64,000 bases of DNA from an uncultured Methanoregulaceae archaeon (GTDB lineage: Archaea > Halobacteriota > Methanomicrobia > Methanomicrobiales > Methanospirillaceae): the NCBI GenBank assembly GCA_963717525.1, contig OY970343.1, forward strand, positions 96,001 through 160,000. The letters run 5' to 3'. The position numbers were made by a program, and so were the translations under genes. The notes beneath the pieces are model-generated. The model saw only the letters and a program-made list of their open reading frames with translations. It had not been told where the DNA came from and ran no database searches. Of this stretch, positions 25,502 to 56,387 are shown piece by piece. Position 1 is the first letter of the stretch, and every line of letters begins with the position of its first letter.

Positions 25502-25526
25502 GTCCTCTAGGATTATCCTAGAGGAC
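25502..25526. repeat. Perfect 12-bp inverted repeat abutting the first Xer-like site
   Basis: GTCCTCTAGGAT-T-ATCCTAGAGGAC. Confidence 0.8.
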
Positions 25527-25552
25527 TTCTTTTAATTCCTATTAAAGGAATA
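25525..25552 (+). other. dif/Xer-like site, spacer TTCCTA
   Basis: ACTTCTTTTAA-TTCCTA-TTAAAGGAATA. Confidence 0.7.
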
Positions 25553-25776
25553 ACGTAAAATCTAAAATTTTAGAGAGATCTCTGCCTAGAGAATCGCTGG
25601 AAAATCGAACCGGAAACCGGGCGGGACATTGAGCCCCTCAACTTATCAAATCCTATCGCTCGGATCCAGTTTGCGGCCTGTATTTTTCCCGCGGTTTAGG
25701 ATGTATGGAACTTTTCAAAAATGAGAGATGAACTGAGGCTGATACTCCACTGCCTGTCATGAAATCCGCGGCATTA

Positions 25777-27003
25777 TCAGAACTCCCTCATTATCTTTAT
25801 CGCACAAAATTCCCCGCACATTGTGCATTCCGCCTCACCATCAGATAACTCGCGCGCCCTCCCGGGATCCATGGAACACCGGATCTGGCCTTCGCGATCG
25901 AGCGCTGCCCGTAGTTCAGAGACAGTTTTATCCACAGCGTCACGGCCGTATTTTACCGTATCACCAATATGGGCTGCAATCCGGAAAGCAATGAGCCCTT
26001 CTTTTACCGCAGCCGGTGTGGGAAGGCCGAGGTGTTCGGCAGGAGTTATATAACAGAGATAATCAGCTCCGGCAGCACTTGCGGCACTCCCACCGCACGC
26101 CCCGGCAATATGGTCGTAACCAATGGCAATATCTGTGGGCAATGGTCCGGCAACAAAAAGCGGGAATGGGGACAATCTCTTTTGATACTTGATATATGAC
26201 AGGATACGGTCACTCCGGATATGACCGCCGCATCCTTCGATGATAACCTGAACCCCTCTTGCCAGCGCCCGGTGTGCGAGTACAATATTCTGGCGGATCT
26301 CGGCAACCTGCATTTTGTCTCTCCGGTCATGGATACACCCGCTCCGTGCGGTGTTTCCGAGTGAAAGGACAATATCGTGCTTCCGGCATATCGACAGGAC
26401 TTCATCAAAATGCTCCACGAACGGGTTCTCGCACTGGTGAATGAGCATAAATGCGCTGGTGATCGAACCGCCTTTGGATACCATGCCGAGCACCCGGTTC
26501 TTTTTCCGGAATCCGTCGAGCATCTCTCTGCTGACGCAATGGACAACAACGGAACTTATCCCCGCCTCTGCCTGCTTCCGGAGAGTCGTAAGGATATCGC
26601 CGGAAGTCATCTCCTTAAGGCCATTTTCGACAACAGCCTGGTATACCGGGACGGTTGTAATGGGAAGCGTGGTAACAGAACATATCTCCCCCCGGATTGC
26701 ATCGATGTCACCGCCCATCGAGAGATCGCTTATCGTGTCAGCGCCAAATTCCTCCGCGATCCGGGCCTTCTTGATCTCATCGCCGACATTTATCTTCCCT
26801 GTAGAAGTACCGAGATTGACGTTGATCTTGGTACTGAGACCCCTGCCGATTCCTACCAGCCGGTCACCGCGTTGCATGATCACCGTGCTGCCATCGGCTA
26901 TCTGCCGGCAGAGGGTCGCGGAATTCACACCTTCCTTCTCTGCAACCAGCCGCACCTGTGGGGTAATTATCCCTGTTCTTGCATGCTCAATCAGTGTTTT
27001 CAT
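25777..27003 (-). CDS. thiC: ThiC-family radical SAM enzyme (ThiC or a Bza-like paralogue)
   Basis: KINVNLGTS, GADTISDLS, TVPVYQ, GYDHI, TPAEHLGLP, CTMCGEFC. Confidence 0.85.
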   Translation of the reverse strand: MKTLIEHARTGIITPQVRLVAEKEGVNSATLCRQIADGSTVIMQRGDRLVGIGRGLSTKINVNLGTSTGKINVGDEIKKARIAEEFGADTISDLSMGGDIDAIRGEICSVTTLPITTVPVYQAVVENGLKEMTSGDILTTLRKQAEAGISSVVVHCVSREMLDGFRKKNRVLGMVSKGGSITSAFMLIHQCENPFVEHFDEVLSICRKHDIVLSLGNTARSGCIHDRRDKMQVAEIRQNIVLAHRALARGVQVIIEGCGGHIRSDRILSYIKYQKRLSPFPLFVAGPLPTDIAIGYDHIAGACGGSAASAAGADYLCYITPAEHLGLPTPAAVKEGLIAFRIAAHIGDTVKYGRDAVDKTVSELRAALDREGQIRCSMDPGRARELSDGEAECTMCGEFCAIKIMREF

Positions 27004-27220
27004 CGTGCACTCGTTCCGGAATATCCGGTTAGTTGTGGGGGTTCAAAGGATATGGATTCTGACTTTTATGTCCGCACCGGATCTTCTAACAGTACCGATA
27101 TGGATACAACCAGAATTGACCAAAAACACTTGTCATGAATCAATAAATAATTGGCTTTGTAGAAGACCTTCCTTCTCCGAAGTAAACAACTGACCTCAAA
27201 AAGTTAAGGTACGGTGTATC

Positions 27221-27248
27221 CCTACCTTTTATGCAAATAAAAGGAAAT
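27221..27248 (+). other. dif/Xer-like site, spacer TGCAAA
   Basis: CCTACCTTTTA-TGCAAA-TAAAAGGAAAT. Confidence 0.72.
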
Positions 27249-27596: not shown

Positions 27597-29159
27597 ATGA
27601 AATTCGATGAAGCTTGTATTGGATCGGGCTTAATGGAAGCCATCACAGTTGGTTTATACGGTAATAATCTGAATTGTTTAAGAGAATATATTCAGAACGG
27701 AATAGATGAAGATGCGAAGAATATCGAATTATTTTTTGAAAATGGCGATCAGGATTTCGTAATAAAAGATGATGGAAATGGGATGAATCGCACTAAATTA
27801 ATCAGCGCATTAAGTATTGGAATATCAGAAAAAACTGAACCTGATATAGGATGGAGAGGAATAGGAATTTGGAGCGGAGTTCCGGTCTCAAAGAAGATCG
27901 TAATTATCACAAAATCGAGAAACAAGCCTATATTAAAGATAGAAATTGATAATGATGTAATACGGAAAGAAATTCCACTCAAAAAACCACTTTTAGACGT
28001 TTTAACCAAAGCGACAACTGATATTGAGGAATTAAAGCCTGGCAAAGATGACTCGTTAGCAAACTCTCATTACACGATTATCCGATTAGAATCAATTTTG
28101 CATACGCAAAAAAGTATTTTTGTTAAAAAGGAGATTAAAAAATATTTAGCCCGAGTAATCCCCATCCCATTTAATGAAGAAACATTTCTTTTTGCACCTG
28201 AGATAAATAAATTATTGAAAGATTCGAATGTAAAATTCCCTCTTGTTAATGTTACTTTCCAAGGAGAGAAAATTTTTAGATTCCCAGAGAGAAGCGATAT
28301 ATTTTTCGAAAAAATTTCAAAAAAAGAGTTTAAAATAGAAGGGGAAGTCGTGGCGATAGGCTGGTTTATCACCCACAAAGAAAATGGGGTTCTTAAAGAT
28401 CCAAATGGTGGTATAATTTTCAAAAAGAAGGGATTCACTATCGGAGATAAACACTTAGTCCACAAACAATTTGAAGGGCATTATGCTCAATGGCAATACG
28501 GAGAAATCCACATAATTTCAAATGAATTGAAAGAAGATACTGCTAGAAATAATTTTGAAAATACTTCTCCGAAACTTGATCCCTTTCTTGAAGATGTTGG
28601 CGCATTCGTTGGACAATTGCATTTACAGAATCAATATCAATCGGCACGTGTCGTAACTAAAGATTTAGCAAGAACTCAAAAATATATCGAAAAGGAGGAT
28701 TTCAGCAGTGCCAAGGAAAAGATAAAAGAAATCACTGGCCGATTGGCAGAAAGGAGGAGTTATCCAGGAGATGATTCATTAAAAGAAATGAAATCGGTGC
28801 TGGATTCAGAATCCACCCAAAATAAAGAAGAATTGACAGAAATCAAAAAGGAACTCGTTGGACAGACGCCGAGTTTGAAAGAAGCAAAAATATCCCATCG
28901 TGAATCAACAATTATGAGTTTGCCGAAGCCAGTTAGGGATCATATCCCCAAAACAAGGAAAAAAGGAAAGCTCGATCTTCAGAGTAGTTTAACAGATTCT
29001 ATTAGAGATAAATTGAAAGAACAAACTGCATCCTCATCCAATGAAATTCATGAGTTAACTAGAGAGGCTTTTGGATGGGATATAATAAAAGCATCCAATA
29101 AACCTCCCCTCCTTACAATAGATCCTACATACAATAATCAAAACCAGCAGGATTCTAGG
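27597..29159 (+). CDS. GHKL (Hsp90/MORC-like) ATPase, 3' end cut by IS481
   Basis: LREYIQNGID, IKDDGNGM, GWRGIGIWSG; AT-rich; ORF runs into the IS end. Confidence 0.8.
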
Positions 29160-30181
29160 TGTAGAGTGCCACAATTAATGTCCGATTTGTTGACAGAGTT
29201 TATGTCCGCTTGATAGACATTTTCTGTTTTTATTAAAATTAATTTCGTTGTGATAGACTGATGTCGGAGTCATCCAGTTCAGGATCTCCTGCTTTCTCCA
29301 GTTGTTGTACTGGTGGTCGAAGGACCAGAGTTCCCGTTTGAAGTGGCTTAACGAATAGAATTCCTTGAGGGCAATGAGTTCCTGATAGAGAGTCTTGTGA
29401 TACCGTTCAATCTTGCCACGGCCACGCGGGTTGTACGGCCGGCCGAAGATCAGTTTGATACCGTTTTTCTGTGCTTCAGCTTTGAAGACTTTTGAGACAA
29501 ACTGTTTCCCATTATCGAGATAAATTTCACGAGGGATTCGTCCGGTGCGGAGCGCCCAGCGAAGAGCGTTGACCGCTGATGCAGCATCTTTGTGAAGATA
29601 GACCTTGCTTTTCACCCGATACCGGGAGCAGTCATCAGTAAAACCGGTGACATAGACCTTGCCGACACCCCGGATACGAAACTGGAACGTATCACCCTGC
29701 CACATGCTGTCAACGTGACGACGTTGGAATCGTTTGCCGGCTGGCTGAGGTTTTGCTTTGACACGAATGAGAAGTCCATGCTTTTTGAGGATACGATGGA
29801 CTGTCCTCCAGGAACAGGCCAGATCAAACTGGTACTTGATACGACGGGCGCCCCATGCAGGATATTTCTCTTTGAGCCGGATAATTCGTCGTTCCAGTGA
29901 CGGAGATATTGCCCGAGGGGATCGTTTCGGCCCGGTCTTTTTGGGTCGCAACCCATCCACCAGGTCTTCACGATGGGCCTTGGCCCAGCGTCTCACCGTC
30001 CTTTCGGAGATGCTATACGTCTCTCCGATCTCTCGTGCGCTTCGTATTCCTTCTTCATAGAATACGACTGATTTGGTTCTGATTTCCATGGTCGCTTTCA
30101 CCCGCAAGCACCTCTTCGGTGCTCTTGAAAGCGGACATAAATACTGTCACTGTTTTAGGACAGAAACTCTGGCACTATACA
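29160..30181 (-). mobile_element. IS481-family insertion sequence
   Basis: TGT...ACA ends with imperfect IR TGTA.AGTGCCA.A and internal TTTATGTCCGCTT. Confidence 0.9.
29175..30107 (-). CDS. IS481-family DDE transposase
   Basis: HTH, WGARRI, WQGD, DDCSR, DNGKQF, GKIER. Confidence 0.92.
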   Translation of the reverse strand: MRVKATMEIRTKSVVFYEEGIRSAREIGETYSISERTVRRWAKAHREDLVDGLRPKKTGPKRSPRAISPSLERRIIRLKEKYPAWGARRIKYQFDLACSWRTVHRILKKHGLLIRVKAKPQPAGKRFQRRHVDSMWQGDTFQFRIRGVGKVYVTGFTDDCSRYRVKSKVYLHKDAASAVNALRWALRTGRIPREIYLDNGKQFVSKVFKAEAQKNGIKLIFGRPYNPRGRGKIERYHKTLYQELIALKEFYSLSHFKRELWSFDHQYNNWRKQEILNWMTPTSVYHNEINFNKNRKCLSSGHKLCQQIGH

Positions 30182-30352: not shown

Positions 30353-30380
30353 CATTCCTTTTATTTGCATAAACAGAAAA
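30353..30380 (-). other. dif/Xer-like site, spacer TGCAAA (reverse)
   Basis: CATTCCTTTTA-TTTGCA-TAAACAGAAAA. Confidence 0.68.
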
Positions 30381-30411: not shown

Positions 30412-30439
30412 CTCTATTTTAATCTGAATTAAAATATTT
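30412..30439 (+). other. Degenerate Xer-like site, spacer TCTGAA
   Basis: CTCTATTTTAA-TCTGAA-TTAAAATATTT; context matches 33734. Confidence 0.5.
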
Positions 30440-32373: not shown

Positions 32374-33645
32374 ATGAACCCTGGTGATTCACCCTCAGGA
32401 AACGGATTCATCCACCCAATCCCATTTTGGATTTTTGTCTGTACCGCCCTCGGACTTATCCTTCTTATGGTAGGTCAGGTATCGGCACTAAATTTCAGCC
32501 AAACCGGAGGCACCAACGGGTTGGAGGGCAAAGCAGCAGTTGTCAATTATCTTATGAGTTCTAACGGAACCCTTTACGCCGCTACGGGAAACGGTGTTTG
32601 GACGTGGGACGGCTCGTCATGGTCTGAAGTGGGAGGATCTTCCGGGCTGACTGGCTATGCTCTCGTCGTTAACCAACTAGTTAGTTCAAATGGACTTCTC
32701 TATGCCGCGACAGCCGGGAGCGGAGTCTGGGCATGGGACGGCTCTTTGTGGTCCCAAGTCGGCGGCCCTCAGGGACTACCTGGAATGTCGTCAAGTGTCA
32801 ATTGTCTTCTCATTTTTAAAGGAACTCTTTATGCAGGAACATGGAACGATGTATGGGCCTGGAACGGAGCTTCATGGTCGTTAGTAGATAAAGTTGGATC
32901 TTCCCCGAGCACCAGGACATTGTATAATGTCATTAGTTTGGTTGATAAGGATGGGACCATCTATGCAGGGACGGATAACGGCGTATGGATGTGGGACGAC
33001 TCATCTTGGGAAACTGTTGGAAACACATCTCTAGCTGTGCATGACGGATCTGAAATTTCCAATCTTTACGTTTCCGATGGCACTCTTTATGCGTCAACAT
33101 TCGGGGGCGTTTTATCCTGGGATGGCACGTCTTGGAATAAGGTTGGTAGCTTCACCGGGTCAATAGCAAACCCGCTTACTATCTTTCAACTGAGCAGTTC
33201 TCAAGGAAATCTTTACGCGGGAACAACTTATGGTGTATATGAATGGGACGGATCATCTTGGTCCTCAATTAGCGAATTTAACGGGAATAAAACGATTGAT
33301 CCATCTATTTTGGCGAGTTCGTTCGGGGTGAATTTAACAACTGCTCCAACGACATTCAGGAATCAAACCTTGATTTCTAGCATATTGATTACACCAGACG
33401 GGATTTTGTATGCTGGAGTTGCGGGAGGTGGGGTTTGGGCTGCTCCTCTTCAGACTCTGAATCAAACCGCCGTTAATCATGAACCAATATCCAATAATAC
33501 AACAGAACCGACAACCGCTGAGGGGACCGGAGCTGTCCCAAATCAAATGACGACTGCTACCGCTGCACCCGTCCCTCTTCAGATTCCCCTTGCCGGAATT
33601 GGCACAGTGATAGTTTTATCAATGATCGCGAAAAGAAGAAAATAA
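32374..33645 (+). CDS. Beta-propeller repeat surface protein
   Basis: Repeated GTLYAGT..GVW.WDGSSW; Thr-rich linker, TM, KRRK. Confidence 0.8.
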   Translation: MNPGDSPSGNGFIHPIPFWIFVCTALGLILLMVGQVSALNFSQTGGTNGLEGKAAVVNYLMSSNGTLYAATGNGVWTWDGSSWSEVGGSSGLTGYALVVNQLVSSNGLLYAATAGSGVWAWDGSLWSQVGGPQGLPGMSSSVNCLLIFKGTLYAGTWNDVWAWNGASWSLVDKVGSSPSTRTLYNVISLVDKDGTIYAGTDNGVWMWDDSSWETVGNTSLAVHDGSEISNLYVSDGTLYASTFGGVLSWDGTSWNKVGSFTGSIANPLTIFQLSSSQGNLYAGTTYGVYEWDGSSWSSISEFNGNKTIDPSILASSFGVNLTTAPTTFRNQTLISSILITPDGILYAGVAGGGVWAAPLQTLNQTAVNHEPISNNTTEPTTAEGTGAVPNQMTTATAAPVPLQIPLAGIGTVIVLSMIAKRRK

Positions 33646-33733
33646 AATTTTCAAGAAGTTTCATTCACTATTTGCCGAAGTTTAATATGCATTAAAATTT
33701 TAAATTGGGATGAAAAGAAATTTCCTATAAATT

Positions 33734-33761
33734 TTTTCCATTAATCTGAATTAAAAGAATG
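33734..33761 (+). other. dif/Xer-like site, spacer TCTGAA
   Basis: TTTTCCATTAA-TCTGAA-TTAAAAGAATG. Confidence 0.62.
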
Positions 33762-33780
33762 ACGATACGATCCACCCATA

Positions 33781-33808
33781 TTTTCCTTTTATTTGCATAA
33801 AAGGCAAG
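33781..33808 (-). other. dif/Xer-like site, spacer TGCAAA (reverse)
   Basis: TTTTCCTTTTA-TTTGCA-TAAAAGGCAAG. Confidence 0.72.
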
Positions 33809-33877
33809 CAGAATTTTTGACTTCATAGAAAAAGCTCAATCGGTATACTGTTGCGTTTACGGTCAGTGATCGATTTT

Positions 33878-35727
33878 TTACTGCACATCGGCGAGCCGGT
33901 ACGTCCCCTTCGGCACGAGGATCTCAAAGCGTGCTCCCTTGCCCGGTTTACCGGTCTCACGGATTGTGATTTTGGAGATAGCAAGAATTTCCCGGGACAG
34001 GGCCAGACCGAGCCCGGTGTTCTTCCCAAAACCCCAATCGAAGATATGCCCCTTATCCTCGCCAAGGATGCCTTCACCATCGTCCTCACACACCACGATA
34101 TAAACGCCATCGACTTCCTCAGCAAAGAACTGGATGGTGGTAATCTTCCTGCCATACCGTACTGCATTCTCAATCAGGTTGTAAAATACCTTAAAAATCA
34201 GCGGATCAGCAAATAATTCTATTCCGGCAGATAGATCGTTTTTCACCTGGATATTTCCGAGTGAGGCTTGCTTTGCTGCAGTATCCACAAGAGTGCGTAT
34301 ATCCTGCCATGCAGGAGCAGTTTCTCCTATTATAGTATATGTTTTCGCGAACAGACTTATAGAGGAAATACGAGTACTTACCTGCTTGATCCACGTGAAA
34401 TACTTCTCAAGAGCTGGATCCGGGATCTTCTCGTGAAGTAATTCAACAAATCCATTCAAAGCCAGAATCTGATTGTCGATGTCATGCCGCGTGATGTTGG
34501 TAAGGAGGGCAAGCTTCCTGTTCGCCTGCCGAAGCGCCTCCTCCGCTCGCTTGCGCTCGGTGATGTCAATGATGATGCCCCGAAGCCCGGTGATCCTGCC
34601 ATTCACGACAATCGGTGACGAGTAGATGGTGACGGGAAACGTGCTCCCGTCTTTCCGCAGGGCCAGATATTCACCTGTATGTTCCGTTCCTCCCTTTCCT
34701 TCAATCATGGTGCGGAAATCCACCGAGACCCGTTTCAGGTCATCGGGAGCAATCATCTGCCAGATGGTAAGCCCATGCGTGAAATCATCCTCTCTATACC
34801 CGAATCGTTCGAATGCAGTGTGGTTCGAGTACGTCAGGTTACCCTCTGTGTCCGCTTCATAGACAACCTGGGGCAGGAGGTCTGCAAGCTCGCGGAATCG
34901 ATTCTCGCTCTCCCGCAACGCCCCCTCTGCCTGTTCCCGTTCGGTAAGGTCCCGGATCGACTCGATCGCACCGATGACCTCATCTTGCCGGTTGTAAAGC
35001 GGGCTTGCTTTGCCCATAAGCGTGACCGGTTTTCCCTGAGGACGAGGAAGGGTTGTTTCGGCGATCAGGACATCCTTCCTGTGAATGATATGGGTATATT
35101 TTTTGGCGATGATCTCGTCGGATTCATAGATCAGATTGATAAGTATTGGTTGCCGTTGCCCGTAGAACGGGATTGCGTACTCGTAATCTCCCTTCCCCAG
35201 CATCGCCGCGGCCGAAACCCCTGTCATCTCTTCAATGGCCCGGTTCCAGCTATTACTACGCCCTTGGTATCGATTGCAAAGGTTGCGTCAGGCAGGAAGT
35301 TGATGATATCCGCTTCCCGGCGCTCAAGGTCCCGGATACTGATTTCCGCCTTTCTCTGCTGGACAGCTTGTCGGATCTGGTGCGCGAGCTCGGTGAACTG
35401 TGACTTAGGTTCACCACCCTTCTGGAGGTAAAAGTCAGCGCCTTCATTTAATGCCTGGATGGCAATCTCTTCACGTCCTCGTCCGGTGAAAAGGATGAAC
35501 GGGATGGTATTTCCCGAAGTTCTTACCTTCTTTAAAAATTCGATTCCATCCATGTCCGGCATCTGGTAATCGGAGATGATCGCAGCATATGGCCGCTTCA
35601 CGAGCATACCGATCGCCTCTTTGGCAGAGGTTGCGGTATCCACGCTGAACTCACCGCTCAGCTCCATGTAGAGCTTGGTTAGGTCAAGCAGGGAATCTTC
35701 ATCATCAACATAAAGAAGATTATACAA
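33878..35727 (-). CDS. Hybrid receiver-PAS-histidine kinase (frameshift near 35249)
   Basis: REC in 35224-35727 continues as PAS-PAS-HK in 33878-35227. Confidence 0.85.
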
Positions 35728-40424: not shown

Positions 40425-40784
40425 GTGACGTATTTTACGGAGGAGGAGGAAGAACTTGGCAGTCTTTTCATGCAGATTGGCATAAAAAAGAACGCGGCAA
40501 AAGTGCTGGTATTTTTAGCCAATAGTTCAGAAGCGACCTCCCATGCGATTGAGCGGGGGACAGACCTGCGCCAACCCGAAGTTAGTCTCGCCATGCGTTA
40601 CCTGATGGATCAGGGTTGGATCATGAGCTGGGAGAGCAAGGCCGAGAGCAAGGGACGACCGGTCAAGATCTACGCGCTTGCAAAGCCCATCGCAAATATC
40701 ATGGATTGTATCGAAAAGGAGAATAACGAAAAAGCCACCAATCAGCTCAAACTCATCAAGGAATTACGGGATTACCTTCATTAA
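40425..40784 (+). CDS. Archaeal winged-HTH regulator
   Basis: IERGTDLRQPEVSLAM..KGRPVKIY. Confidence 0.85.
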   Translation: MTYFTEEEEELGSLFMQIGIKKNAAKVLVFLANSSEATSHAIERGTDLRQPEVSLAMRYLMDQGWIMSWESKAESKGRPVKIYALAKPIANIMDCIEKENNEKATNQLKLIKELRDYLH

Positions 40785-40833: not shown

Positions 40834-40861
40834 CGGACTTTTAATTGTTATAAAAGGAAAA
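40834..40861 (+). other. dif/Xer-like site, spacer TTGTTA
   Basis: CGGACTTTTAA-TTGTTA-TAAAAGGAAAA. Confidence 0.68.
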
Positions 40862-40877: not shown

Positions 40878-40905
40878 TTTTCATTTAATTTCTATTAAAG
40901 GAACA
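40878..40905 (+). other. dif/Xer-like site, spacer TTTCTA
   Basis: TTTTCATTTAA-TTTCTA-TTAAAGGAACA. Confidence 0.7.
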
Positions 40906-43633: not shown

Positions 43634-43661
43634 CCGATTTTTAATTGTTATTAACGGAATT
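43634..43661 (+). other. dif/Xer-like site, spacer TTGTTA
   Basis: CCGATTTTTAA-TTGTTA-TTAACGGAATT. Confidence 0.62.
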
Positions 43662-45516: not shown

Positions 45517-45586
45517 AAGATATTATTGACCGGCTGATTTTTTTGAATCATATTTATAATATCGAATAAACAAGTGATTTTCTATT

Positions 45587-46957: not shown

Positions 46958-47135
46958 CTTTTAGCATAATATCCATCCCGTATAAGGCCTTCATATCTTA
47001 GTTCTATTAGTAGATCTCATAAAAAACAGTCTAGAGTACTCTGGGTTCTGTGACGTTGTCGGAATCTTTAAATAGTCAACAGTGGTGTGCCACGACGATA
47101 TCATTATTATTAAGCCCCGTTAACGCAACAGCATC

Positions 47136-47163
47136 CTTTCCTTTTATTTGCATAAAAACGACT
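47136..47163 (-). other. dif/Xer-like site, spacer TGCAAA (reverse)
   Basis: CTTTCCTTTTA-TTTGCA-TAAAAACGACT. Confidence 0.68.
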
Positions 47164-47198
47164 CATTCTGTGTTGACTGGAAATATAAGGTCGGGATG

Positions 47199-47226
47199 TT
47201 TTCGGTTAATTCCAATTAAAATTGCC
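47199..47226 (+). other. Degenerate Xer-like site, spacer TTCCAA
   Basis: TTTTCGGTTAA-TTCCAA-TTAAAATTGCC; positionally equivalent to 51797. Confidence 0.5.
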
Positions 47227-47605: not shown

Positions 47606-50450
47606 ATGAAATTATTGAAATCTTGCGTAATACTGCTCGCGATAGTACTTGCAGTTATCGTAATAGCACCGATAGTGTATGCCGTAAATTACCCGGGTCC
47701 TTCAGTGACGCTCACTGACGCACAAGTGGCAGCACTTGATGTAAATACCATCCAATTGCCACAACTTCATTTCGATAATTCGCAAGCAAAAGTGATTGTC
47801 AATGCTGAGCTCAATCCTGTCGAAACTACACAGTCAACTCAAGTTACCTCGATGGCAGTGTCATCCCAAAGCACTTCGGGTTCAACAGCCCCGGTTGGCG
47901 CAATTATTTATCATTCGCAGGGAGGAGTAACAAGCGTATTTGATTCGAATGGCAATCAGCTGTTTGCTACAAACGACGCCACCGCGGCACTCGTTGCAAC
48001 TCCAAACGGTGAAGCTCCTGCAACATTTGTCCATGAGATTCCTTCCGGCTCCATTGTAAAATATGGAACGAATGGAACGTTTGTTTTCTACAATAGTCAA
48101 TTGATATTAACTCTCGTGAATGAGGGGGGATCTAATTTAGTAAATGAAAATTCCATTGCCGTTCCCTCAGCTGTGTCAGTTCCCGTATCTAGTTGCGGTA
48201 ATTTAAACGGCAATAATTATATAGGCTGGATCGAAGATGCAGAAACCAGTGCCAGTGCTCCAACATCATTGACCAGATTTGAAGCGACGTGGAAAGCGCC
48301 TGAACAAACACCTAATACCACGGAATCGCAGGCTGGACCTCTTGCTATATTTAATGGGATTCAGAATGCGAGCACAGGCGTTACAGATGGGATTATGCAA
48401 CCGGTCCTCAGTTGGGACTATATTCCAAAGGACTTTCCTACCACACCCCGCCTATATTACACAGGCGCTGCTTGGGATTTTCACACACCCAATTCTGGAG
48501 AAGATTCCCTCCATTCCACCCCGATATCGGTTTCCCCCGGAGATACTGTTCGTGGAACTATGGAGTGGAGTCCGTACCTCAAAACGTGGATTATTCAATT
48601 TAGTGACATAAATAACGGAAGGACAACTGAATTTCATTCAAACAGATTTACGACAACCAATCTTCAGTTGTTTATGGCTGTTGAAGCCTCGCAACAAGGG
48701 GTAATAATAAATCCAACTCCAACTGTCCCTAGTTTAAACAATGGATTGACCGGATCTATTCAGCTTCAATAATATCATTATACAAAACAATGGGCAATCA
48801 GTTCCGGTCATATTTTCCCCGGATATTTGTTCATTAGCAACGCAACATTTTAACAGTTTAAATGTCGTTATTAATCCAACCCCATTGAGCGTTTCGCTCA
48901 TTACCCAACCGATTTCCTATACAATCACCGCAACAGCAAACTTCAATGGAGCGATTAGTCCCTCTGGATCTGTTATAGTAGTGGATGGAGCAAGTCAGAC
49001 CTTCACTATCACGGCAAATCAGTGGTATGTGATCGATGATGTCGAAGTTGATGGAACCTCTGTTGGCGGATCTGACCTGCAAACGTTTTCATATACGATA
49101 CCCGATGTAACAGAAGATCATATGATCCATGCGTCGTTCAAACGTGCACAAATCTACACGATAACACCAAATGCCGGATCTGGCGGTTCTATCACGCCGT
49201 CAACCACAGTCAGAGTTCGACAGGGTCAAAGTCAGACGTTCACGATAACACCAGACACCGGTTACGCTATTGAGGATGTCCAGATTGACGCGGGAACTCC
49301 TAATGCCATAGACGCCGGGGCTACAAGCAGTTACACATTTCCCAATGTACAAGCAGACCAAACCATCAGCGCCACCTTTATTCCTACCTATACGATAACA
49401 CCAAGTGCCGGATCTGGCGGTTCTATCACGCCGTCAACAGCAGTCAGGGTTCAACAGGGTCAAAGTCAGACGTTCACGATAACACCAGACACCGGTTACG
49501 CTATTGAGGATGTCCAGATTGACGCGGGAACTTCTAACGCTATAGACGCCGGCGCTGTAAGCAGTTACACATTTCCCAATGTACAAGCAGACCACACCAT
49601 CAGTGCCACGTTCATTCCTACCTATACGATAACACCAAGTGCCGGATCGGACGGTACTATCACGCCGTCAACAGCAGTTACGGTTCGACAGGGTCAAAGT
49701 CAGACGTTCACGATAACACCAGACACCGGTTACGCTATTGAGGATGTCCAGATTGACGCGGGAACTCCTAATGCCATAGACGCCGGGGCTACAAGCAGTT
49801 ACACATTTCCCAATGTACAAGCAGACCAAACCATCAGCGCCACTTTTAATCTGATTCAACCCAATAATCCGATGACGTGGGACTGGTCTTCGCAAGGTTG
49901 GGGTAACTGGCAGTACACCTGGACAGTGTCAGGAACGCAGACTGGGCCCAATTCCCCATTAGGTCCCGAGATCGATAATGGCGTTGGCGTGTTTGGAACA
50001 AACACCAATCTTCTGGCCGGTTCGACTGAGTCTGATGTTACGAATACCTTTACCGATCCTACCGGCACCGGATGGAATACCCTCATATTCAACGGGGCGC
50101 TTGGTGCGAGTGATGTTCCCGGTGGGCGATGGATGACGATTACCGTTAATGGCCAGGAGGTGTTTGGCGCAACAGAATTACAGACACCACCAGGGGATGC
50201 CGATCAGCCGTTTACGATTGTTGCATCATTCCCCCAGACTTCTTCAGCAATGGTTACCCTCTCCCAAGGGCAAGATCCTGCCTGGGGGCCAGATTTCCCG
50301 ATGTATTGCAATAGTTTAACTATTGGCGAAGAAAACACCCAACAAATGAGTACTATGACTGCACTTGTGTCAAAGCCGAAGATCACCTTCACTATACCGG
50401 ACGGTAGTGAATGGAGTGGAAATAAGACGACCTCTAAAGTCGGAGCTTGA
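47606..50450 (+). CDS. Secreted protein with InlB-B-like repeats (frameshift near 48761 joins two ORFs)
   Basis: Signal peptide; second frame is open from ~48764 into 48885; three near-identical 234-bp repeats. Confidence 0.78.
49153..49850 (+). repeat. Three intragenic 234-bp tandem repeats
   Basis: YTITP.AGS.G.ITPST...QTFTITPDTGYAIEDVQID...TISATF three times. Confidence 0.9.
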
Positions 50451-50611
50451 AAGGAGGATACATCGAGCGAGATAGATACCTTCAACGACAATATGGGATA
50501 AATGAGCACCTCCCTTTTCGATAGATAAATTCATGAAGATAAGGAAGGACGATTTACAATACTTACTCCACAAATAGCAAAAAAGTCTGCTGAATATGAA
50601 AAGAGGAAACC

Positions 50612-51175
50612 ATGTTTAATAATTCGTTGACGATCCTTCTGCTAGTCTCCTGCATTCTTATTTCAGGATGCGTTTTCACTCCCTCAGTCAACAATCTTTC
50701 AACCAATGTATCGATTAATCAATTCACCCTTAACGAGTCAGTCTCAGGAAACGTAACCCCAATTATTCCTCCAATCCCTGGAGACTTTCCTGTTTATATC
50801 AGTGAAAAATATATCAACAACGGTTCTGGGACTATTGTCATGAATTATTCTGAGATCGTTGCTCATGACTATACTAATATTCCGGTTTCGCCAAGGTTTC
50901 CCGGTGGAAAACTTGCACCATTTTGTGGGTATTCAGGTAATCTTTCTAAAATCTCCGAGATTGCTATGAATGATAACCGAACTCAAAAAATTCTCAAGGA
51001 TGGTGGGATAATTGAGGATGTGAATGTATACGCCGCTCAACAAATGCTAACACATAATGAAAATCCTTGCGATGGTCTATATTTAGCTCTATATATTAAT
51101 ATTTACATCAGTCAAACAAAGGTCATTGTGGTGAATGAGAGCGCGATGAATGTTGTTGATATAGAAACATTATAA
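50612..51175 (+). CDS. Putative lipoprotein
   Basis: Lipobox-like ISGC after a hydrophobic leader. Confidence 0.7.
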   Translation: MFNNSLTILLLVSCILISGCVFTPSVNNLSTNVSINQFTLNESVSGNVTPIIPPIPGDFPVYISEKYINNGSGTIVMNYSEIVAHDYTNIPVSPRFPGGKLAPFCGYSGNLSKISEIAMNDNRTQKILKDGGIIEDVNVYAAQQMLTHNENPCDGLYLALYINIYISQTKVIVVNESAMNVVDIETL

Positions 51176-51340
51176 AATAGCGAGAGACGGGTGTTGATAT
51201 TGGCGGAGGTATTTCCTTTGAGTCACGATAACGCATCAGAATCGCACGGTATATTGCTATTCACCCATTCAAGATTCTAATATAACGCTCTGGAGGTAAT
51301 ACTGATCCTCCCCATGGTTTCCAAAGAGAAAGAGATTCAT

Positions 51341-51807
51341 ATGTTAATAATTCGTTGACGATCCTTCTGCTAGTCTCCTGCATTCTTATTTCAGGATGCG
51401 TTTTCACTCCCTCAGTCAACAATCTTTCAACCAATGTATCGATTAATCAATCCGCACTTAACAAGTCAGTCTCAGGAAACCTAACCCCAATTATTCCTCC
51501 AATCCCAAGAGACTTTCCTGTTTATATCAGTGAAAAATACATCGACAACGGTTCTGGCACTATTGTCATGAATTATTCTGAGATCGTTGCTCATGACTAT
51601 ACTGATATTCCGGTTTCACCAGAGTTTGTTAATCCTCATGCTCCTTTTTGTGGATACTCGGGTAATTCCTCCGATTTTTCCGAGATCGCTATGAACGATT
51701 ACCGCGTTCAAAACATACTCAGAGGTGGTGGAATAATTGAGGATATAGATGAATGGGTAATTTTTCGAAGCCATTTATTTTTCGCGCACCAGAACCCTTT
51801 CCTTTAA
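51341..51807 (+). pseudogene. Tandem duplicate of the 50612 lipoprotein, 3'-truncated and ending in a Xer-like site
   Basis: Near-identical 5' part with a 1-nt deletion after ATG; diverges after GGIIED. Confidence 0.7.
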
Positions 51808-51824
51808 TAACAATTAAAAATGTC
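51797..51824 (-). other. dif/Xer-like site, spacer TTGTTA (reverse)
   Basis: CTTTCCTTTAA-TAACAA-TTAAAAATGTC. Confidence 0.68.
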
Positions 51825-52206
51825 TTGGCAAGTTCTGTTGTAGGGGTAGTATATTAAACGGTCAACATTTGGGGTCATGTTGAAGGTCATTTTATTGGAT
51901 CTCGTTAACGCATCATCGCCCATTAAAATTTTTAATGTAATTATAATTTTAATATGTTGTTATAACGTTAAAATAAAAAACACAATATTTTTATTTATCC
52001 ATTTACAAACCATTCTCTTGCCAGTCCTAGACAAATCAAAGTTTGGTAGTGTCGTTCAAACAGAATTGAAAAAACAGAGAGACGGGTTCACCAGTCCTGA
52101 ACGTCAGATGAACCCTTCTTGCCCAAGGCATGAATCAATACTCTTCAGACAATGAAGAATTTTCTGGTCATGCCTCTAAAAAGCAACACCGGAGGTAATG
52201 ATTGAC

Positions 52207-54744
52207 ATGAAATTGGTAGATTGAGGAGTTATACTTCTTGTATTGATTCTTGTGACCATTTTTGTAGTGCCCGGGGTGGGGGCAACCCAGAACAACCCAA
52301 CTCCTGACAACGGGATATGTGATAACAATCACGGTCAAGGATGTGCCGTCAAGCAGCCTTATCCGCCATGTGACAACGATCAAAACAATCACTATTGTGA
52401 TTGGCATGCGGATGATAGCTGGTGTAAAAATCACGGACAAGGTAAAAATTTTGTCAGTGTCAAAAACGCAACCGTTGCTGCATCATATCTCGTGGGCGAA
52501 ATATCCAATGAACAATCGACTGATTACACAGATTGGAATGGGGCAACAGTAGTAGAAAATACGACATATTACGATGTGAATGGCGTTGAATCCGCGTACT
52601 CGTTCGATGTCATTGTCAACGGCCAATATGATGGATATATCATGGTCTCTGCAACTCGGGATAATTTTCCCATCCTCGAATTCTCAAAAGGAATTACCCC
52701 GGACAAAGATCCAGGGACTCTCATTAATGCAGAGAAACTGGCTCAAACTCAAATAAAAGATCCCAGAGAAGTTTTGGGCGAAGGGCAGCCAATTTATCTC
52801 GGCGCAACATTCTTCGATATGGCATATCCGGTAGAACTCAATAATACAAGATCCGGCCCGCAACCAATCCCTGATGACCAAATACTGGTTGATCTCATTA
52901 GGGGGGCCATTGCAGAACAAACACCAGAACAACTAAACGCAACCGAAAGACAAGAACTGGCGCAAATACAGCAGCAGAATATTGCCGAAGCAAACTCCGA
53001 ATGGAATGCTCTTGATACTGCAGGAAATTCCAATTCCGGTTCAACCACATCTATGAATGCAAATTCCGTAAAAGCAAATGTTGCAGTAATCGGGGGTGGT
53101 GGTCAGCCCACTAATTCCAATCCTATAGTCGGTGTTCCGGCGTATTTATGGAGATATGGTTGTGCCCCAACTTCCACAGCTATGGTCTTGGGATATTGGG
53201 AGAACCAAGGATTGACAGAATTACCCGCTGTTACCGATACTACTTACGGAAATCCATTAAATGTTGACTTAGCAGAGGTTATGGGTACAGACATTGTGGA
53301 GTCGGGATATTGGTGGGATTGTATACTCAATCCCTTGGATAAAAATTGTGGTGGCACATCGCCTGAGGGGATATCTACAGGAATAACAGATATTTTAAGT
53401 AATAACCTTATCAGTGGATGGTCACAATCATCAAACTTTGAACATGTTGAAGGTTACAGTGGCGATATAAATGAGATAAATAATGGATATCCGTTCCTCC
53501 TTAGTCTGGATGGAGGGGGTGCTCCTGTGGGGAGCACTACAAGCTATGGACAACATGTTATTGCCGTCATCGGTTACGATTCTTCTGAGAACACTTTAAT
53601 AGTTGATGATACATTTCATACTGTTCCGGTCGAGATAAGGTATGGTAATTGGCAGAATGCAATGTATTATAAAATCGAACATGGGGGTGATTATACGATC
53701 ATCGCAAGTGCAGGACCTGGAGGTAATATTTATCCTTCTGGTTCTCAATTAGTTGTGCCAGATTTTAGTCAATCTTTCAGTATCGTTCCGAACACGGGTT
53801 ACGTTATTCAAAATGTTGAAACGGATAATGATGTAGACCATGGGCCTATAGTTATTTACACCTTTAGCAATGTAGTGGCAGATCATTCCATCAGCGCTAC
53901 ATTCACACCTATTACCTATACCATCAGCGCCAGCGCAGGAACGGGGGGTAGTATCACTCCCTCCGGATCTGTTAGTGTTCCGTTTGACGGAAGTCAAACG
54001 TTCACCATTACGCCAGCCTCCGGTTACGTTATCAGCGATGTCCAAGTTGATGCGGGAACCCCTGAGTTTGTAGATGCTGGGGCTGCAAGCAGTTACACCT
54101 TTAGCAATGTAATTGCAAGCCATACCATCAGTGCCACATTCCAGCAGATCCCCACCACCTACTCCTCGTCATGGGACTGGTCATCACAAGGTTGGGGTAA
54201 CTGGCTGTTCAATTGGTCGGTATCAGGAGATCAAACAGGCCCCAATTCTGCGTTAGGTCCCGAAATCGGTAACGGTGAAGGCGTATTTGGCACAAATACC
54301 AATCTCCTTGCCGGTTCGACTCAGTCAACTGTCACGAATACCTTCATCGATCCGACCGGAGTCGGATGGAATACCCTCACATTCAGTGGTGCGCTTGGTC
54401 CGAGTGACGTCCCCGGCGGACGTTGGATGACGATTACCGTCAATGGTCAGCAGGTATTTGGCGCAACAGAATTAGATACGCCACCGGGAGATTCCGGTCA
54501 ACCGTTCACGATTACTGCCTCATTCCCGCAAACATCTTCCGCTTTAATTACCATCTCTCAGGGGCAGGATCCCGCGTGGGGTCCAGATTTCCCGATGTAT
54601 TGCGATAATTTGGCACTGAGTAATGAAAACACTCAAGAAGCAAACACAATGACCGCTCAGGTGTCAAGTCCGAAAACAACCTTCACTATCCCTGATGGGA
54701 GCGAATGGGCCGGAAACACGACGAATTCCTCTATCAAAACCTGA
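52207..54744 (+). CDS. Secreted papain-like (C39/C10-type) peptidase with InlB-B-like repeats; TGA at codon 6
   Basis: Prodomain GYIMVSA..PILEFS; YGCAPTSTAMVLGYW; HVIAVIGY; VDDT. Confidence 0.78.
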
Positions 54745-54834
54745 AAAGAATGTAAATAGACCGAAGTGAATAACGTCACTTGAATAAAGGATCCAATTAA
54801 TCCTTTTTCAATCAGTCTGACCGGTAGATGAGAT

Positions 54835-56143
54835 ATGAAAACGCGAAGGTATTTTGGATTTCGTGGTGTCAGCACAGGATATACCCGGCGAGCTGTAAAA
54901 TTATTCCTTGGCTTCTTCCTGCTGATCCTGCTTCTAATCCCGACTGCATCAGCGCAGGATATGATGTTCCGATACGACGCCAGTCGGTACTGGAGATTAC
55001 AGTCCAGTCGCCGGCACGACAGGCACCACGATATCGCAGATCTGGAGTTATGCGACCGGAAACGCTGTGTTTTCTGGCCCGACGATAGCGAATGGTGTCG
55101 TATATATCGGAAGTTTTGATGACAAGGTATACGCGCTGAATGCTTCTACCGGGCTGCAGCTCTGGAATTTTACGAATGGAGGTGATTCGCATTCCAGCCC
55201 TGCGGTAGCGAACGGCGTGGTGTATGTCGGGAGTGGGAATTACAACGTATACGCACTGAACGCTTCTACCGGCATGAAACTTTGGAATTATACGACCGGA
55301 AGCACTGTGGCATCCAGCCCTGCGGTAGCGAACGGCGTGGTATATGTCGGGAGCGAGGATCACAACGTATACGCACTGAACGCTTCTACCGGCATGAAAC
55401 TTTGGAATTATACGACCGGAAGCACTGTGGCATCCAGCCCTGCGGTAGCGAACGGCGTGGTGTATGTCGGGAGCGAGGATCACAACGTATACGCACTGAA
55501 CGCTTCTACCGGCATGAAACTTTGGAATTATACGACCGGAAGCACTGTGGCATCCAGCCCTGCGGTAGCGAACGGTGTTGTATATATCGGGGACGGGAAT
55601 GGAAAAGTATATGCGCTGAACGCCTCCACCGGGACGCAGATCTGGAATTATACGACTGAAAACTCTGAGTATTATGAGTATATCACCAGCCCTGCGGTAG
55701 CGAACGGCGTGGTGTATGTCGGAAGTGATGATGGCAAGGTATATGCGCTGAACGCCTCCACCGGGACGCAGATCTGGAATTATACGACTGAAAACTCTGA
55801 GTATTATGAGTATATCACCAGCCCTGCGGTAGCGAACGGCGTGGTGTATGTCGGAAGTGATGATGGCAAGGTATATGCGCTGAATGCTTCTACCGGGCTG
55901 CAGCTCTGGAACTATGCAACCGGAACATTTGTAAGTTCCGACCCGGCGGTAGTGAACGGCGTTGTATATATCGGGGACGGGAATGGAAAAGTATACGCGC
56001 TCAACACCAGGGTCCCAAATGCAATCTCCCCCATAATATATATTGTTTTTTTTGCATTTATCGTGCTTCTTTGTGTGTATTTTGCTTATCAGATTGTAAA
56101 AAAAAGGAGGAGAAGGGTGCTGATAAGTTCGCGGGACGATTGA
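54835..56143 (+). CDS. PQQ-like (BamB-type) beta-propeller protein (frameshift near 54986)
   Basis: MFRYD.SRTG start, SSPAVANGVVYVGS.D..VYALNA.TG..W repeats, C-terminal TM. Confidence 0.88.
55195..55882 (+). repeat. Near-perfect intragenic 120-bp and 132-bp tandem repeats
   Basis: Identical lines recur at 120-bp period from 55261 to 55560 and at 132-bp period after 55607. Confidence 0.9.
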
Positions 56144-56359
56144 ACCGGATGCAAATCCATCAGATATTCCTCAAGAAATCTGGTTCTGATAAGTTAGCGT
56201 TGTTGACCGATTTTTCATATCGTTAAAATTATCCTGTCGACCACCGAAGTAACAAGACCTATAACCTCCTTTAACTGTTATCGCCCGGACCCGGTTTACG
56301 GGCCAGATTTTTCTGGCGGTTTTCCCGATATAAAATTCTCTAAAGTTTTGGATATTACA

Positions 56360-56387
56360 CATTCCTTTAATAGGAATTCAAGGAAAA
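56360..56387 (-). other. dif/Xer-like site, spacer TTCCTA (reverse)
   Basis: CATTCCTTTAA-TAGGAA-TTCAAGGAAAA. Confidence 0.72.

Follow-up and report, generated by a model that had tools for sequence, protein, structure and literature searches.

Gene content of the island

The window, i.e. the whole stretch of DNA analysed here, comprises 64,000 nt from an uncultured Methanoregulaceae archaeon (GCA_963717525.1, contig OY970343.1, positions 96,001-160,000 of the forward strand). The corresponding genome, hereafter the host genome (G000), belongs to Methanoregula and has a size of 2.29 Mb. The window harbors an island in which short palindromes delimit almost all blocks of genes, with the gene for a tyrosine integrase at one end (Table 1). 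A preliminary description had assigned the cargo genes from the DNA alone. Pfam matches confirmed thiC, a GHKL ATPase, an IS481-type rve transposase, a PAS kinase with a receiver domain, satP, acs, a PAS protein, a TrmB-like HTH protein, a GNAT protein, DUF4062, DUF2513, a C39-like peptidase and a PQQ propeller, whereas "HEPN" (45587-46957), "adhesin" and "lipoproteins" were without a Pfam match at E ≤ 0.001. The base composition is as uneven as had been stated, with a GC content of the modules of 0.34-0.55 versus 0.57 in the flanking core. When 15 cargo proteins were analysed with PADLOC, the sole match was an SMC-like ATPase (24414-25346) that resembles DndD/PbeC heads.

Table 1 Sites, flanks and associated genes of the island, in window positions
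Feature	Position	Strand	Remark
Perfect hairpin CCTCTAGGA-TTA-TCCTAGAGG	25504..25524		abuts distal terminal site
Distal terminal site, class TAGGAA (TTCCTA on + strand)	25525..25552		left breakpoint of thiC duplication
F flank of 25525 site, ~90 bp	25553-25640		directed into island
E flank of 27221 site, ~100 bp, thiC side	27150-27220		also at 1119767 and 1120063 (host genome) and in metagenome contig L066
Site, class TGCAAA	27221..27248		right boundary of thiC module
Site, class TGCAAA (TTTGCA on + strand)	30353..30380		double with 30412
Site, class TCTGAA, weaker arms	30412..30439		direct repeat of 33734
Site, class TCTGAA	33734..33761
Site, class TGCAAA (TTTGCA on + strand)	33781..33808
TrmB/MarR-like winged-helix gene	40425..40784	+
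Site, class TAACAA (TTGTTA on + strand)	40834..40861		double with 40878
Site, central TTTCTA	40878..40905		F flank 40906-41012 at GNAT 3' end
Site, class TGTAAA	41605..41632		GNAT 5' end; boundary of GNAT module common to island 2
Site, class TAACAA (TTGTTA)	43634..43661		double with 43685
Site, class TGTAAA	43685..43712
Site, class TGCAAA (TTTGCA)	47136..47163		directly right of genome-wide G-hairpin element 47043-47135
Site, central TTCCAA, weak outer arm	47199..47226
Site, class TAACAA	51797..51824
F flank of 56360 site	56275-56359		directed into island
Proximal terminal site, class TAGGAA	56360..56387		inverted versus 25525
ORF154, small protein without known family	56459..56923	-
Tyrosine integrase, 445 aa, C-terminal coiled-coil-like extension	57295..58632	-
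Hairpin CTCCCTA-N-TAGGGAG, then ACTTTTTATAT	58690..58726		end of duplicated integrase module

Clustering of the sites

Fifteen sites had been claimed for the island, and indeed an intergenic palindrome is present at each of these positions (15/15). The pattern TTCCTTTWA-N6-TWAAAGGAA, with up to three mismatches, matches ten of the 15, with 0.08 expected and none of 100 shuffles reaching ten. The core TTWAT-N4-ATWAA is exact in 14 and has one mismatch in the site at 56360; altogether this core has 17 matches in the window versus 0.33 expected from a shuffle control, and three of these (908, 29229 and 33682) are additional to the 15 sites. Scores of the 15 sites with the position weight matrix (PWM) are circular, because the matrix was made from the same sites.

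In a genome-wide scan, 35 of the 39 strong sites (PWM score ≥ 20 bits) were found inside three islands that total 125 kb, or 5% of the genome. The window is not the only location of such an array: about 20 more sites are located in two further islands, islands 2 and 3, at 1.105-1.156 Mb and 1.274-1.312 Mb. The simplest alternative is that the motif is an artefact of composition, an AT-rich promoter- or terminator-like sequence in foreign DNA of low GC content. The islands are AT-rich, and the half-site TTTWAT is similar to the consensus of the archaeal TATA box, a resemblance that is also suggested by two solitary sites outside the islands, which are at promoter distance from a start codon. 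However, in matched AT-rich context there were 22 matches in 33,378 island positions versus one in 74,625 positions elsewhere, which contradicts an even spread over AT-rich promoters, and the reversed pattern gave 0-1 matches per genome. In addition to these and the shuffle controls, the exact spacing of the arms and the conservation of extended flanks across species argue against chance. AT-richness does not explain the clustering, and the probability of such an artefact is close to nil.

All 35 island sites are intergenic; 13 are between two 3' gene ends, and the distance to start codons varies from 3 to 940 bp. A fixed function as promoter or terminator does not fit this placement, and for most of the sites this reading was ruled out on the basis of the 13 convergent positions and the variable distances. 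Neither tRNA genes nor Rfam elements were detected at the sites; the only tRNAs of the window are two tRNA-Cys genes.

Architecture of the sites

In an alignment of the 35 sites, a pair of arms in inverted orientation, each of about 11 bp, flanks a central region of 6 bp. A parsing into 10-bp arms and a 4-bp centre is equally possible, because every central 6-mer starts with T and ends with A. The preliminary description had assumed a single, uniform dif-like sequence. Instead, the sites split into several central classes (TGCAAA, seven sites; TAGGAA, six; TGTAAA, five; TAACAA, four; TAGCAA, three; TCTGAA, two), and pairs with an identical central 4-mer are far more frequent (56) than in 2000 shuffles (mean 15.3, maximum 31). 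The centre is more conserved than one of the arms, and a strong and a weak arm are present in every class. Many sites have a conserved flank of 90-100 bp on one side only (F or E), and many are doubles, 20-39 bp apart. Such composites recur: the A+B2 double site 30353/30412 is also found in another genome, G100 (139424/139471), and the composite 43634/43685 at 1285516/1285568 in the host genome and, inverted, in G100. The 400-bp leader that follows the 47199 site is 74% identical to the one following 51797. Likewise, island 2 has a hairpin next to its distal terminal site, as do G087, a genome of another species, and the metagenome contigs L113, L114 and L137. Altogether, the asymmetric arms, the discrete centres and, as described below, the breakpoints, the linkage to an integrase and the recurrence point to the core site of a tyrosine recombinase.

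A palindrome may also be an operator or silencer, to which a dimeric protein of the island (the TrmB-like winged-helix protein or the ribbon-helix-helix-like ORF154) binds to regulate or silence foreign genes; the coincidence of sites and module boundaries would then result from intergenic repeats that favor homologous exchange. A winged-helix gene is indeed found next to sites of the window and of both other islands, and likewise in metagenome contig L037 and in G087 (64% identity). One site is 29 bp upstream of a winged-helix start codon, the two solitary sites are at promoter distance as well, and recombination products were not observed. Constraint on the spacer is typically lowest in operators, whereas in the island sites the spacer is the best-conserved part and comes in discrete classes. 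The strong/weak-arm asymmetry, the inheritance of half-sites along with their flanks, the inverted sites exactly at the island ends beside the integrase and the 13 sites between convergent genes also speak against this function, which we regard as unlikely. The winged-helix protein may be an accessory factor or regulator.

Modules and their breakpoints

The idea of gene cassettes is supported by modules that are found elsewhere with breakpoints at the sites, i.e. the thiC module, the GNAT module and a module at 1117677 in the host genome, as well as a module in L037. The thiC module (25527-27247) matches 1121782-1120062 at 97.2% identity, and the match breaks off at both ends within or right at the centre of a site. 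The integrase module, 2.4 kb from the 56360 site onwards, is duplicated in island 3 at 99.2% identity, and module 1125496-1126538 of the host genome is present in L037 at 93% identity, with the break at the site and different neighbors. Inter-island duplicates have 20 end points, of which four are no more than 15 bp and one more is no more than 48 bp from the centre of a site, compared to about 0.16 expected by chance from simple arithmetic. Some duplicated island segments end far from any site, and some ends coincide with a genome-wide hairpin element. The genome-wide hairpin GGTTCTGTTGCGTTG...CAACAGAACC had been considered as an attC-like site and was rejected; it is scattered over the whole genome and not island-specific.

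Could the sites be relics, that is, attL and attR sequences left behind by small elements or plasmids that integrated serially at one att site, the array now being inert? Direct repeats of the same class around segments (30412/33734, which flank two surface-protein genes, 30353/33781, 40834/43634 and 41605/43685) would be the outcome of circles integrating, degenerate arms are frequent, and site 1290372 of the host genome is flanked by F on either side, as if the ends of two elements met there. Furthermore, archaeal elements are known in tandem integration (PMC8371274, sections consulted). However, the modules carry no integrases of their own and the central regions are kept intact. Modules that are 97-99% identical are located in different islands beside different neighbors, which indicates recent movement. 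An inert array is therefore quite unlikely.

The segments between several of the direct-repeat pairs are retained. An unrestrained recombinase would delete them, and their retention counts against active sites. Contigs of four public runs (X10-X13, out of 16 runs listed, none of them RNA) covering 33001-53000 contained no excision, inversion or circle joint at any site; these contigs are short and would miss rare forms. Because no recombination product was seen, the activity of the island sites is inferred. The same contigs identify the frameshifts of 1 bp at 37666 and 48761 as errors of the assembly. The metagenomes of runs X1-X9 contain the whole island. When 19.7 kb of the island served as query for a DNA search across the genus, only the conserved acs/satP, thiC and IS481 matched, at 70-90% identity, and no near-identical strain was found that would allow occupied and empty loci to be compared.

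The island integrase and its neighbors

The tyrosine recombinase that had been noticed beyond the last site has a Phage_integrase domain (Pfam PF00589; 40.9 bits, cut-off 27.1). All 16 aligned sequences of the family share R140, K173, H262, R265, H287 and Y295; the catalytic roles of these residues were assigned by position and by alignment to 4a8e, XerA of P. abyssi, which is the nearest solved structure (E 3e-4). The integrase is below the cut-offs of the models for archaeal XerA (NF040815; 50.6 versus 220 bits) and for the integron integrase (TIGR02249; 18.4 versus 265 bits), and all named members of its family are from Methanoregula; 72 integrase clusters were obtained. Each of the three islands of the host genome ends with an integrase of this one family with intact catalytic residues (33% identity, E 3e-62). 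ORF154 is kept between terminal site and integrase twice in the host genome, in G087 and in L066. No Pfam, NCBIfam or PADLOC family was found for ORF154 and Atlas scores were below 0.9; its homologue in L066 has a sub-threshold match to NikA-like ribbon-helix-helix proteins. The element behind the integrase gene (58690..58726) could be a half-site or the TATA box of the integrase promoter.

The G087 island, which has nine sites in total, follows the same plan: after the hairpin come a site with its F flank, the array and an inverted site that also has an F flank, and next to these are ORF154 (53% identity) and the integrase (37% identity). Because the order site-ORF154-integrase recurs in this species, the island integrase is a better candidate for the enzyme than the host XerA. 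As judged from this linkage, it would bind and cut the sites and may still do so today.

The host XerA and its candidate site

The preliminary description had named either the host XerA or the island integrase as the driver; the recurrence in G087 speaks for the latter, and the part on XerA found no support. The host genome has a single xerA gene (1387441-1388287), which is split by a frameshift in the assembly. Among 571 candidate palindromes of the 11-6-11 type, the one adjacent to xerA was taken further. A single copy of this palindrome, TTGCGCAGAA-TACCTA-TTCTGCGCAA, is present in each of 20 genomes, including the host genome, out of 41 from the order; it is located 68-93 bp upstream of xerA in four of five genomes checked, which makes it the best candidate for the XerA/dif site of Methanomicrobiales. 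It differs from the island sites, whose likeness to it is limited to the innermost bases and a comparable centre. Xer sites have a conserved ATAA-central region-TTAT (PMC11705084, sections consulted). The island sites read TTWA-central region-TWAA, and the inner-edge signature of Xer/dif that had been ascribed to them is missing.

The sites might still be mimics of dif that are recombined by the chromosomal XerA, in the way pdif/xrs sites are recombined by XerCD. The 11-6-11 geometry fits this assumption, the genome encodes one xerA, the inner arm bases (AA-6 bp-TT) and the central TTCCTA of one class resemble GAA-TACCTA-TTC, and XerA of P. abyssi binds unrelated stem-loop att sites weakly (PMC8371274, in part). 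On the other hand, the arms of the single-copy, xerA-linked palindrome are quite different, most relatives have few or no copies of the island motif, yet xerA is present in five of five checked, and the sites co-occur with a dedicated integrase three times in the host genome and again in G087. XerA is thus an unlikely enzyme for the island sites, and we give such hijacking a very low probability.

Occurrence in other genomes and collections

The double sites of the window island are found in G100 around 12 kb of unrelated cargo. The integrase family is present in four of five site-rich genomes tested, often in multiple copies, and in seven of 40 sampled relatives, the two counts coming from searches that differ in query and threshold. 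Among these 40 relatives, four had a match to the motif and seven a match to the integrase, without overlap. De novo searches around distant integrase homologues (31-38% identity; 80 kb in G036, 20 kb in G001 and 40 kb in G004) gave no palindrome family, and seven genome loci around integrase homologues had at most one site each and no site family. In a viral collection, nine pattern matches were obtained, none of which was notable after PWM filtering, and relatives of the integrase were not found. The pattern scan of metagenomes yielded at least 116 stretches, mostly chance matches in AT-rich DNA, of which about 11 true relative loci remained after PWM filtering. Full-text searches of the literature outside subscription journals found no account of such arrays in methanogens.

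Comparison with known systems

The pdif/xrs sites of Acinetobacter, the targets of XerC/XerD, have a length of 28 bp with two arms, one of them degenerate, and a 6-bp centre (PMC11705084, sections consulted). The island sites are alike in length, in the 6-bp centre and in having one conserved and one degenerate arm; they also delimit cargo whose functions are unrelated, and paired sites frequently stand in inverted orientation or differ in their centres. Unlike pdif/xrs, they have neither ATAA-central region-TTAT nor any likeness to the candidate host Xer site, which itself is unproven as dif. They are linked to a dedicated integrase and a small ORF and reside in archaeal chromosomal islands, not on plasmids, and the one-sided flanks and closely spaced doubles are a further difference.

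Integrons (IntI, attI, attC) have reportedly been found in Archaea as well; attC hairpins measure 57-141 bp. A word search of the paper on archaeal integrons (10.1101/2022.02.06.479319) gives no occurrence of Methanoregula. As in integrons, a tyrosine recombinase gene is located at one end of a diverse array of site-bounded cassettes, and several genes are followed at their 3' end by a conserved element, made up of F flank and site. Unlike in integrons, the integrase reaches only 18 bits with the IntI model (cut-off 265), the sites are short, duplex-type 28-bp palindromes and not folded attC hairpins, and the genes of a module, up to six, point both ways and have their own upstream regions, instead of forming one-way cassettes behind attI and Pc.

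Shufflons (Rci/sfx of R64) are among the multi-site inversion systems of tyrosine recombinases and rearrange parts of one gene. Like the islands, they combine numerous short sites, oriented either way, with a single tyrosine recombinase gene located where the array ends, but the modules of the islands are whole genes or operons of foreign origin that are shared by distant islands. With archaeal integrative elements the window island has in common the integrase at its end, the location in a variable region near tRNA-Cys and the precedent of tandem integration cited above. The att sites reported for these elements are exact repeats, two for each element, which the element has in common with its target, such as a tRNA gene, and tens of palindromic core sites in one island are not described in the sections consulted (PMC8371274).

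A model for module exchange

We consider it probable that the islands represent a modular system of the pdif type that is coupled to the island integrase. According to this model, the 28-bp palindromes would be core-type sites with inverted binding arms and strand exchange in the 6-bp centre, which split the three chromosomal islands of Methanoregula into modules. The most likely enzyme would be the integrase encoded at 57295-58632 together with its paralogues, and ORF154, perhaps along with the winged-helix protein, could have an accessory role by binding to DNA at the F and E flanks. Recombination between sites with matching centres would add, remove or exchange modules, with different islands or incoming circles as partners. 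One module could be swapped by two successive exchanges at different site classes, which is also the likely route proposed for Acinetobacter pdif/xrs in the literature, as far as consulted.

The palindrome-bounded gene blocks and the integrase look like an undescribed archaeal system for building and exchanging modules. It is tempting to speculate, with chances somewhat short of even, on a full exchange system of Methanoregula that consists of the integrase and a ribbon-helix-helix-like partner, acts on asymmetric 28-bp sites with at least six compatibility classes of the centre, builds chromosomal islands of tens of cassettes with terminal sites in inverted orientation and exchanges modules from one island or genome to another. 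If true, archaea would have in it a counterpart of integrons and pdif modules that is driven by an integrase, and it could be the first cassette-type platform of methanogens that is independent of IntI and Xer. Beyond the integration of whole elements into tRNA genes, uptake and reshuffling of accessory genes are little understood in archaea, especially in methanogens. The analysis offers a grammar of sites (strong arm, weak arm, central classes, double sites) and a candidate set of enzymes; recognition of the sites, control of direction and movement of modules between strains in peat and soil communities become testable, and sites and integrase are possible tools for the genome engineering of methanogens. 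A by-product is the candidate dif/XerA site for Methanomicrobiales that adjoins xerA.

Distribution of the sites

The genome of the uncultured Methanoregulaceae archaeon (G000) is a single contig of 2.288 Mb with a GC content of 54.5%; the window spans its positions C1:96001-160000. An intergenic palindrome is indeed present at all 15 positions of the window for which the preliminary description had reported dif/Xer-like sites. The consensus proposed there, TTCCTTTWA-N6-TWAAAGGAA, recovered 10 of the 15 at ≤3 mismatches, with 0.08 expected from shuffles and 0/100 shuffles reaching 10. The exact invariant core TTWAT-N4-ATWAA occurs 17 times in the window (0.33 expected), at 14 of the 15 sites and at three extra places (908, 29229 and 33682). 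A 28-bp matrix made from the 15 window sites, circular for those 15 but not for the remaining genome, gave 39 matches of ≥20 bits in G000, and 35 of these lie within three islands that comprise about 5.5% of the genome. An even spread through AT-rich promoters, named beforehand as contrary to the proposal, was looked for and not found. AT-richness as the cause of the clustering is ruled out by a GC-matched comparison: at positions with a GC below 0.40 over the surrounding 200 bp, the islands have 22 matches in 33,378 versus 1 in 74,625 in the rest of the genome.

All 35 island sites are intergenic. Since 13 lie between two 3′ gene ends (6 between two 5′ ends) and the distances to start codons range from 3 to 940 bp, no promoter or terminator role fits the site set. 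Two solitary sites outside the islands are located ~25 bp upstream of a Shine-Dalgarno sequence and ATG, and the half-site looks like a TATA box; both points count against the reading as recombination sites. A genus-wide scan at ≤2 mismatches found one or more sites in 21 of the 107 other genomes and no more than 5 in any of them, compared to 19 in G000; the reversed-pattern control gave 0–1.

The modules between the sites are uneven in base composition, as described before, with GC values of 0.34–0.55, whereas the flanking core has 0.57. Most of the cargo labels were confirmed by Pfam, those of the "HEPN" protein (45587-46957), the "adhesin" and the "lipoproteins" having no Pfam match.

Coordinates of islands, modules and related features (positions below 64,000 are those of the window, larger ones those of G000, unless a genome is named)
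Feature	Position	Details
Island 1	25527-56362	in the window
Island 2	1,104,997-1,156,211	
Island 3	1,273,845-1,312,139	
thiC module	25527-27247 = 1121782-1120062	inverted, 97.2% identity
GNAT module	41014-41632 = 1121889-1122509	89.7% identity
Third module	1117677-1118718 = 1306142-1305094	97.1% identity
Integrase module, 2.4 kb	56325-58726 = 1273907-1271502	99.2% identity
Integrase, island 1	window	445 aa
Integrase paralogue	1101224-1102690	488 aa; 33% identity, E 3e-62
Integrase copy, island 3		99% copy of window protein, frameshifted in assembly
G087 distal end	G087 72107	hairpin, then F-flanked terminal site
G087 array interior		7 sites between ends; homologue of the winged-helix gene (TrmB/MarR-like) inside, 64% identity
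G087 proximal end	G087 101726	inverted site with F flank
G087 ORF154 homologue		53% identity
G087 integrase		37% identity
xerA	1387441-1388287	split by frameshift
TACCTA palindrome	G000:C1:1388354-1388381	outside the window
TACCTA palindrome, other genomes	G020:C1:689849; G032:C1:616458; G027:C1:314697; G025:C9:209747	
tRNA-Cys genes	18625-18697 (+); 60252-60324 (-)	inverted pair
IS481-family insertion	29156-30181; 1094738-1095763; 1739973-1740994	copies 100% identical

Anatomy of the sites

The 35 sites are heterogeneous: once oriented by their central 6-mer, they fall into the classes TGCAAA (7), TAGGAA (6), TGTAAA (5), TAACAA (4), TAGCAA (3) and TCTGAA (2), with 8 singletons. Identical central 4-mers are shared by 56 pairs (2000 column shuffles gave a mean of 15.3 and a maximum of 31). 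Members of one class agree perfectly in the centre and almost fully in one arm, and the opposite arm varies; in the TAGGAA class the arm TTCCTTTAA is found in 6/6 sites. As judged from sequence, this is how a tyrosine-recombinase core site is built, with one strong and one weak arm and a centre that would have to match its partner. A dimeric operator normally has its loosest constraint in the spacer.

Some classes carry conserved one-sided flanks. The F element (~90 bp), in which CCGG-rich repeats accompany a second palindrome, TCTAAAATTTTAGA, lies on the strong-arm side of TAGGAA/TAGCAA sites, and the E flank (~100 bp) on some TGCAAA/TGTAAA sites. Double sites, 20–39 bp apart, are present at five junctions; the composite TAACAA+TGTAAA (43634/43685 and 1285516/1285568) and the composite TGCAAA+TCTGAA (30353/30412) both recur in another genome, G100.

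A non-coding leader of ~415 bp (47200-47613 and 51798-52214, 74% identity), extremely AT-rich and with internal repeats, begins exactly at a site upstream of secreted-protein genes. Sites of another, distinct class, TTTTAT-ACGAG-TAAAA with the centre CTCGTA, are embedded in a conserved ~240-bp element at 525801 and 1312139, in metagenome contigs L080 and L043 and in G054, G086, G090 and G118; several Methanoregula genomes have 1–3 copies, also outside islands.

Modules and breakpoints

Self-comparison of the islands revealed four recently shared modules. Both ends of the thiC module are at sites, where full identity extends across the module-side arm and ends within or right at the central region; between the outer arms, likeness is no greater than between any two sites. 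One end of the GNAT module is at a site and the second ~120 bp inside, bordered in one island by an F element and in the other by a hairpin element. These two modules are neighbours in island 2 and 13 kb apart in the window. The third module has one end at a site, and the integrase module starts at the terminal site. Of the 20 end points of 10 duplicates (insertion sequences and tandem copies left out), 4 are ≤15 bp from a site centre, a fifth is within 48 bp and the remaining 15 are not at sites; by our own arithmetic, chance would yield ~0.16 (36 sites, 30 bp each, in 137 kb). A metagenome contig, L037, has the module at 1125496-1126538 at 93% identity, and homology stops at the site centre, with different neighbours. 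In a second contig, L066, an E-flanked site is immediately adjacent to an F-flanked site and a homologue of ORF154, the small protein gene between terminal site and integrase; in the window these junctions are 29 kb apart.

Two module breakpoints coincide with a dispersed inverted-repeat element of ~95 bp, GGTTCTGTTGCGTTG...CAACAGAACC (47043-47135 and 56180-56270). It has ~55 motif matches genome-wide, 3′ of genes and often in +/- pairs 65–80 bp apart.

No recombination product was seen in contigs from four public runs over 33001-53000, which have no joint at any site, a coverage that says little on rare events; we infer activity of the array from its sequence. At 37666 (acs) and 48761, the extra base of the assembly is missing from the same contigs. 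These 1-bp differences are assembly errors, and "split" genes of G000 should therefore not be read as pseudogenes. Other single-base frameshifts split xerA (1387822), CysRS (58966-59899) and the integrase copy (1272546).

Island integrase and host XerA

A tyrosine recombinase of one family is found at the end of each of the three islands. That of the window, already noticed near the last site, has intact catalytic residues: R140, K173, H262, R265, H287 and Y295 are kept in 16/16 aligned family members. At least 72 clusters make up the family; its named members are all Methanoregula, and it scores far under XerA, XerC/D and IntI models. Each island has its terminal TAGGAA sites in inverted orientation, their F flanks facing inward, and a hairpin lies beside the terminal site at the distal end. 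This layout is repeated, with 9 sites in all, on contig 3 of another species (G087). The family is present in 4/5 site-rich genomes tested, several with multiple copies. Among 40 sampled relatives, 7 have a family member and 4 a motif match, with no overlap, and a de novo palindrome search, which recovered the site family of the window as positive control, found no palindrome family near distant integrase homologues in G036, G001 and G004. Together with the few sites across the genus, this tempers the link between integrase and sites.

The preliminary description had also offered host XerA as driver. G000 has one xerA, whose frameshift is probably an assembly error. A palindrome, TTTGCGCAGAA-TACCTA-TTCTGCGCAAT (TTGCGCAGAA-TACCTA-TTCTGCGCAA; 11-6-11, 1 mismatch), is located 67 bp upstream of xerA in G000; among five genomes checked, it is 68–93 bp upstream in 4/5 and 1.2 kb off in the fifth. 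At ≤3 mismatches it is found, mostly as a single copy, in 20 of 41 Methanomicrobiales genomes (G000 included) and 6/10 sampled genera. It is the best candidate for a XerA site, which may be dif or an operator. Its arm resembles the bacterial XerC arm; the arms are unlike those of the island sites. According to PMC11705084, the motif ATAA-CR-TTAT (CR, central region) is decisive for Xer binding and cutting, and the island sites lack it. With its candidate site differing in the arms and this motif missing, we regard recombination of the island sites by XerA as very unlikely.

Comparison with known systems

Functionally closest is the pdif/xrs module of Acinetobacter, which has the site geometry, the asymmetric arms, the modular cargo and the part played by central-region classes in common with the array, but differs in enzyme, likeness to host dif, replicon and domain of life. 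An integron fails on integrase model, site type and cassette orientation, and the array was judged not to be a shufflon. It also exceeds the attL/attR pairs given for archaeal integrative elements in the part of PMC8371274 available. In a full-text literature search, most subscription journals being outside its scope, no account of arrays of this kind from methanogens turned up. The array structure is real, unusual, recurring across species and directly testable.

Surroundings of the island

The tRNA-Cys genes flank the island and the split CysRS gene. Relative to the right flank block, that on the left (19–24 kb) is inverted in both G041 and G092, which marks the locus as a rearrangement hot spot. 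The identical IS481-family copies suggest, by their sequence, recent transposition. A short dispersed repeat, TTTTCCGGAA..CAGCTCATGACCCGAACTTTTTT, lies near both island ends (24186-24275 and 58714-58799) and at G000 1-100, 508600-508740 and 1369680-1369860, with tandem copies in many intergenic regions. G-run/C-run palindromes, GGGGGGTGGGG-N6-CCCCTCCCCCC, are found at 2260-2517 (G000 98260-98517) and at G000 38334, 169337, 411085, 721994, 1543117, 1988031 and 2103822. A 310-aa ATPase (24414-25346, minus strand) matches DndD/PbeC-type SMC-like defence proteins only in their N- and C-terminal heads and lacks the middle part; paralogue fragments are present at 792122 and, by the last site of island 3, at 1312359-1312893.
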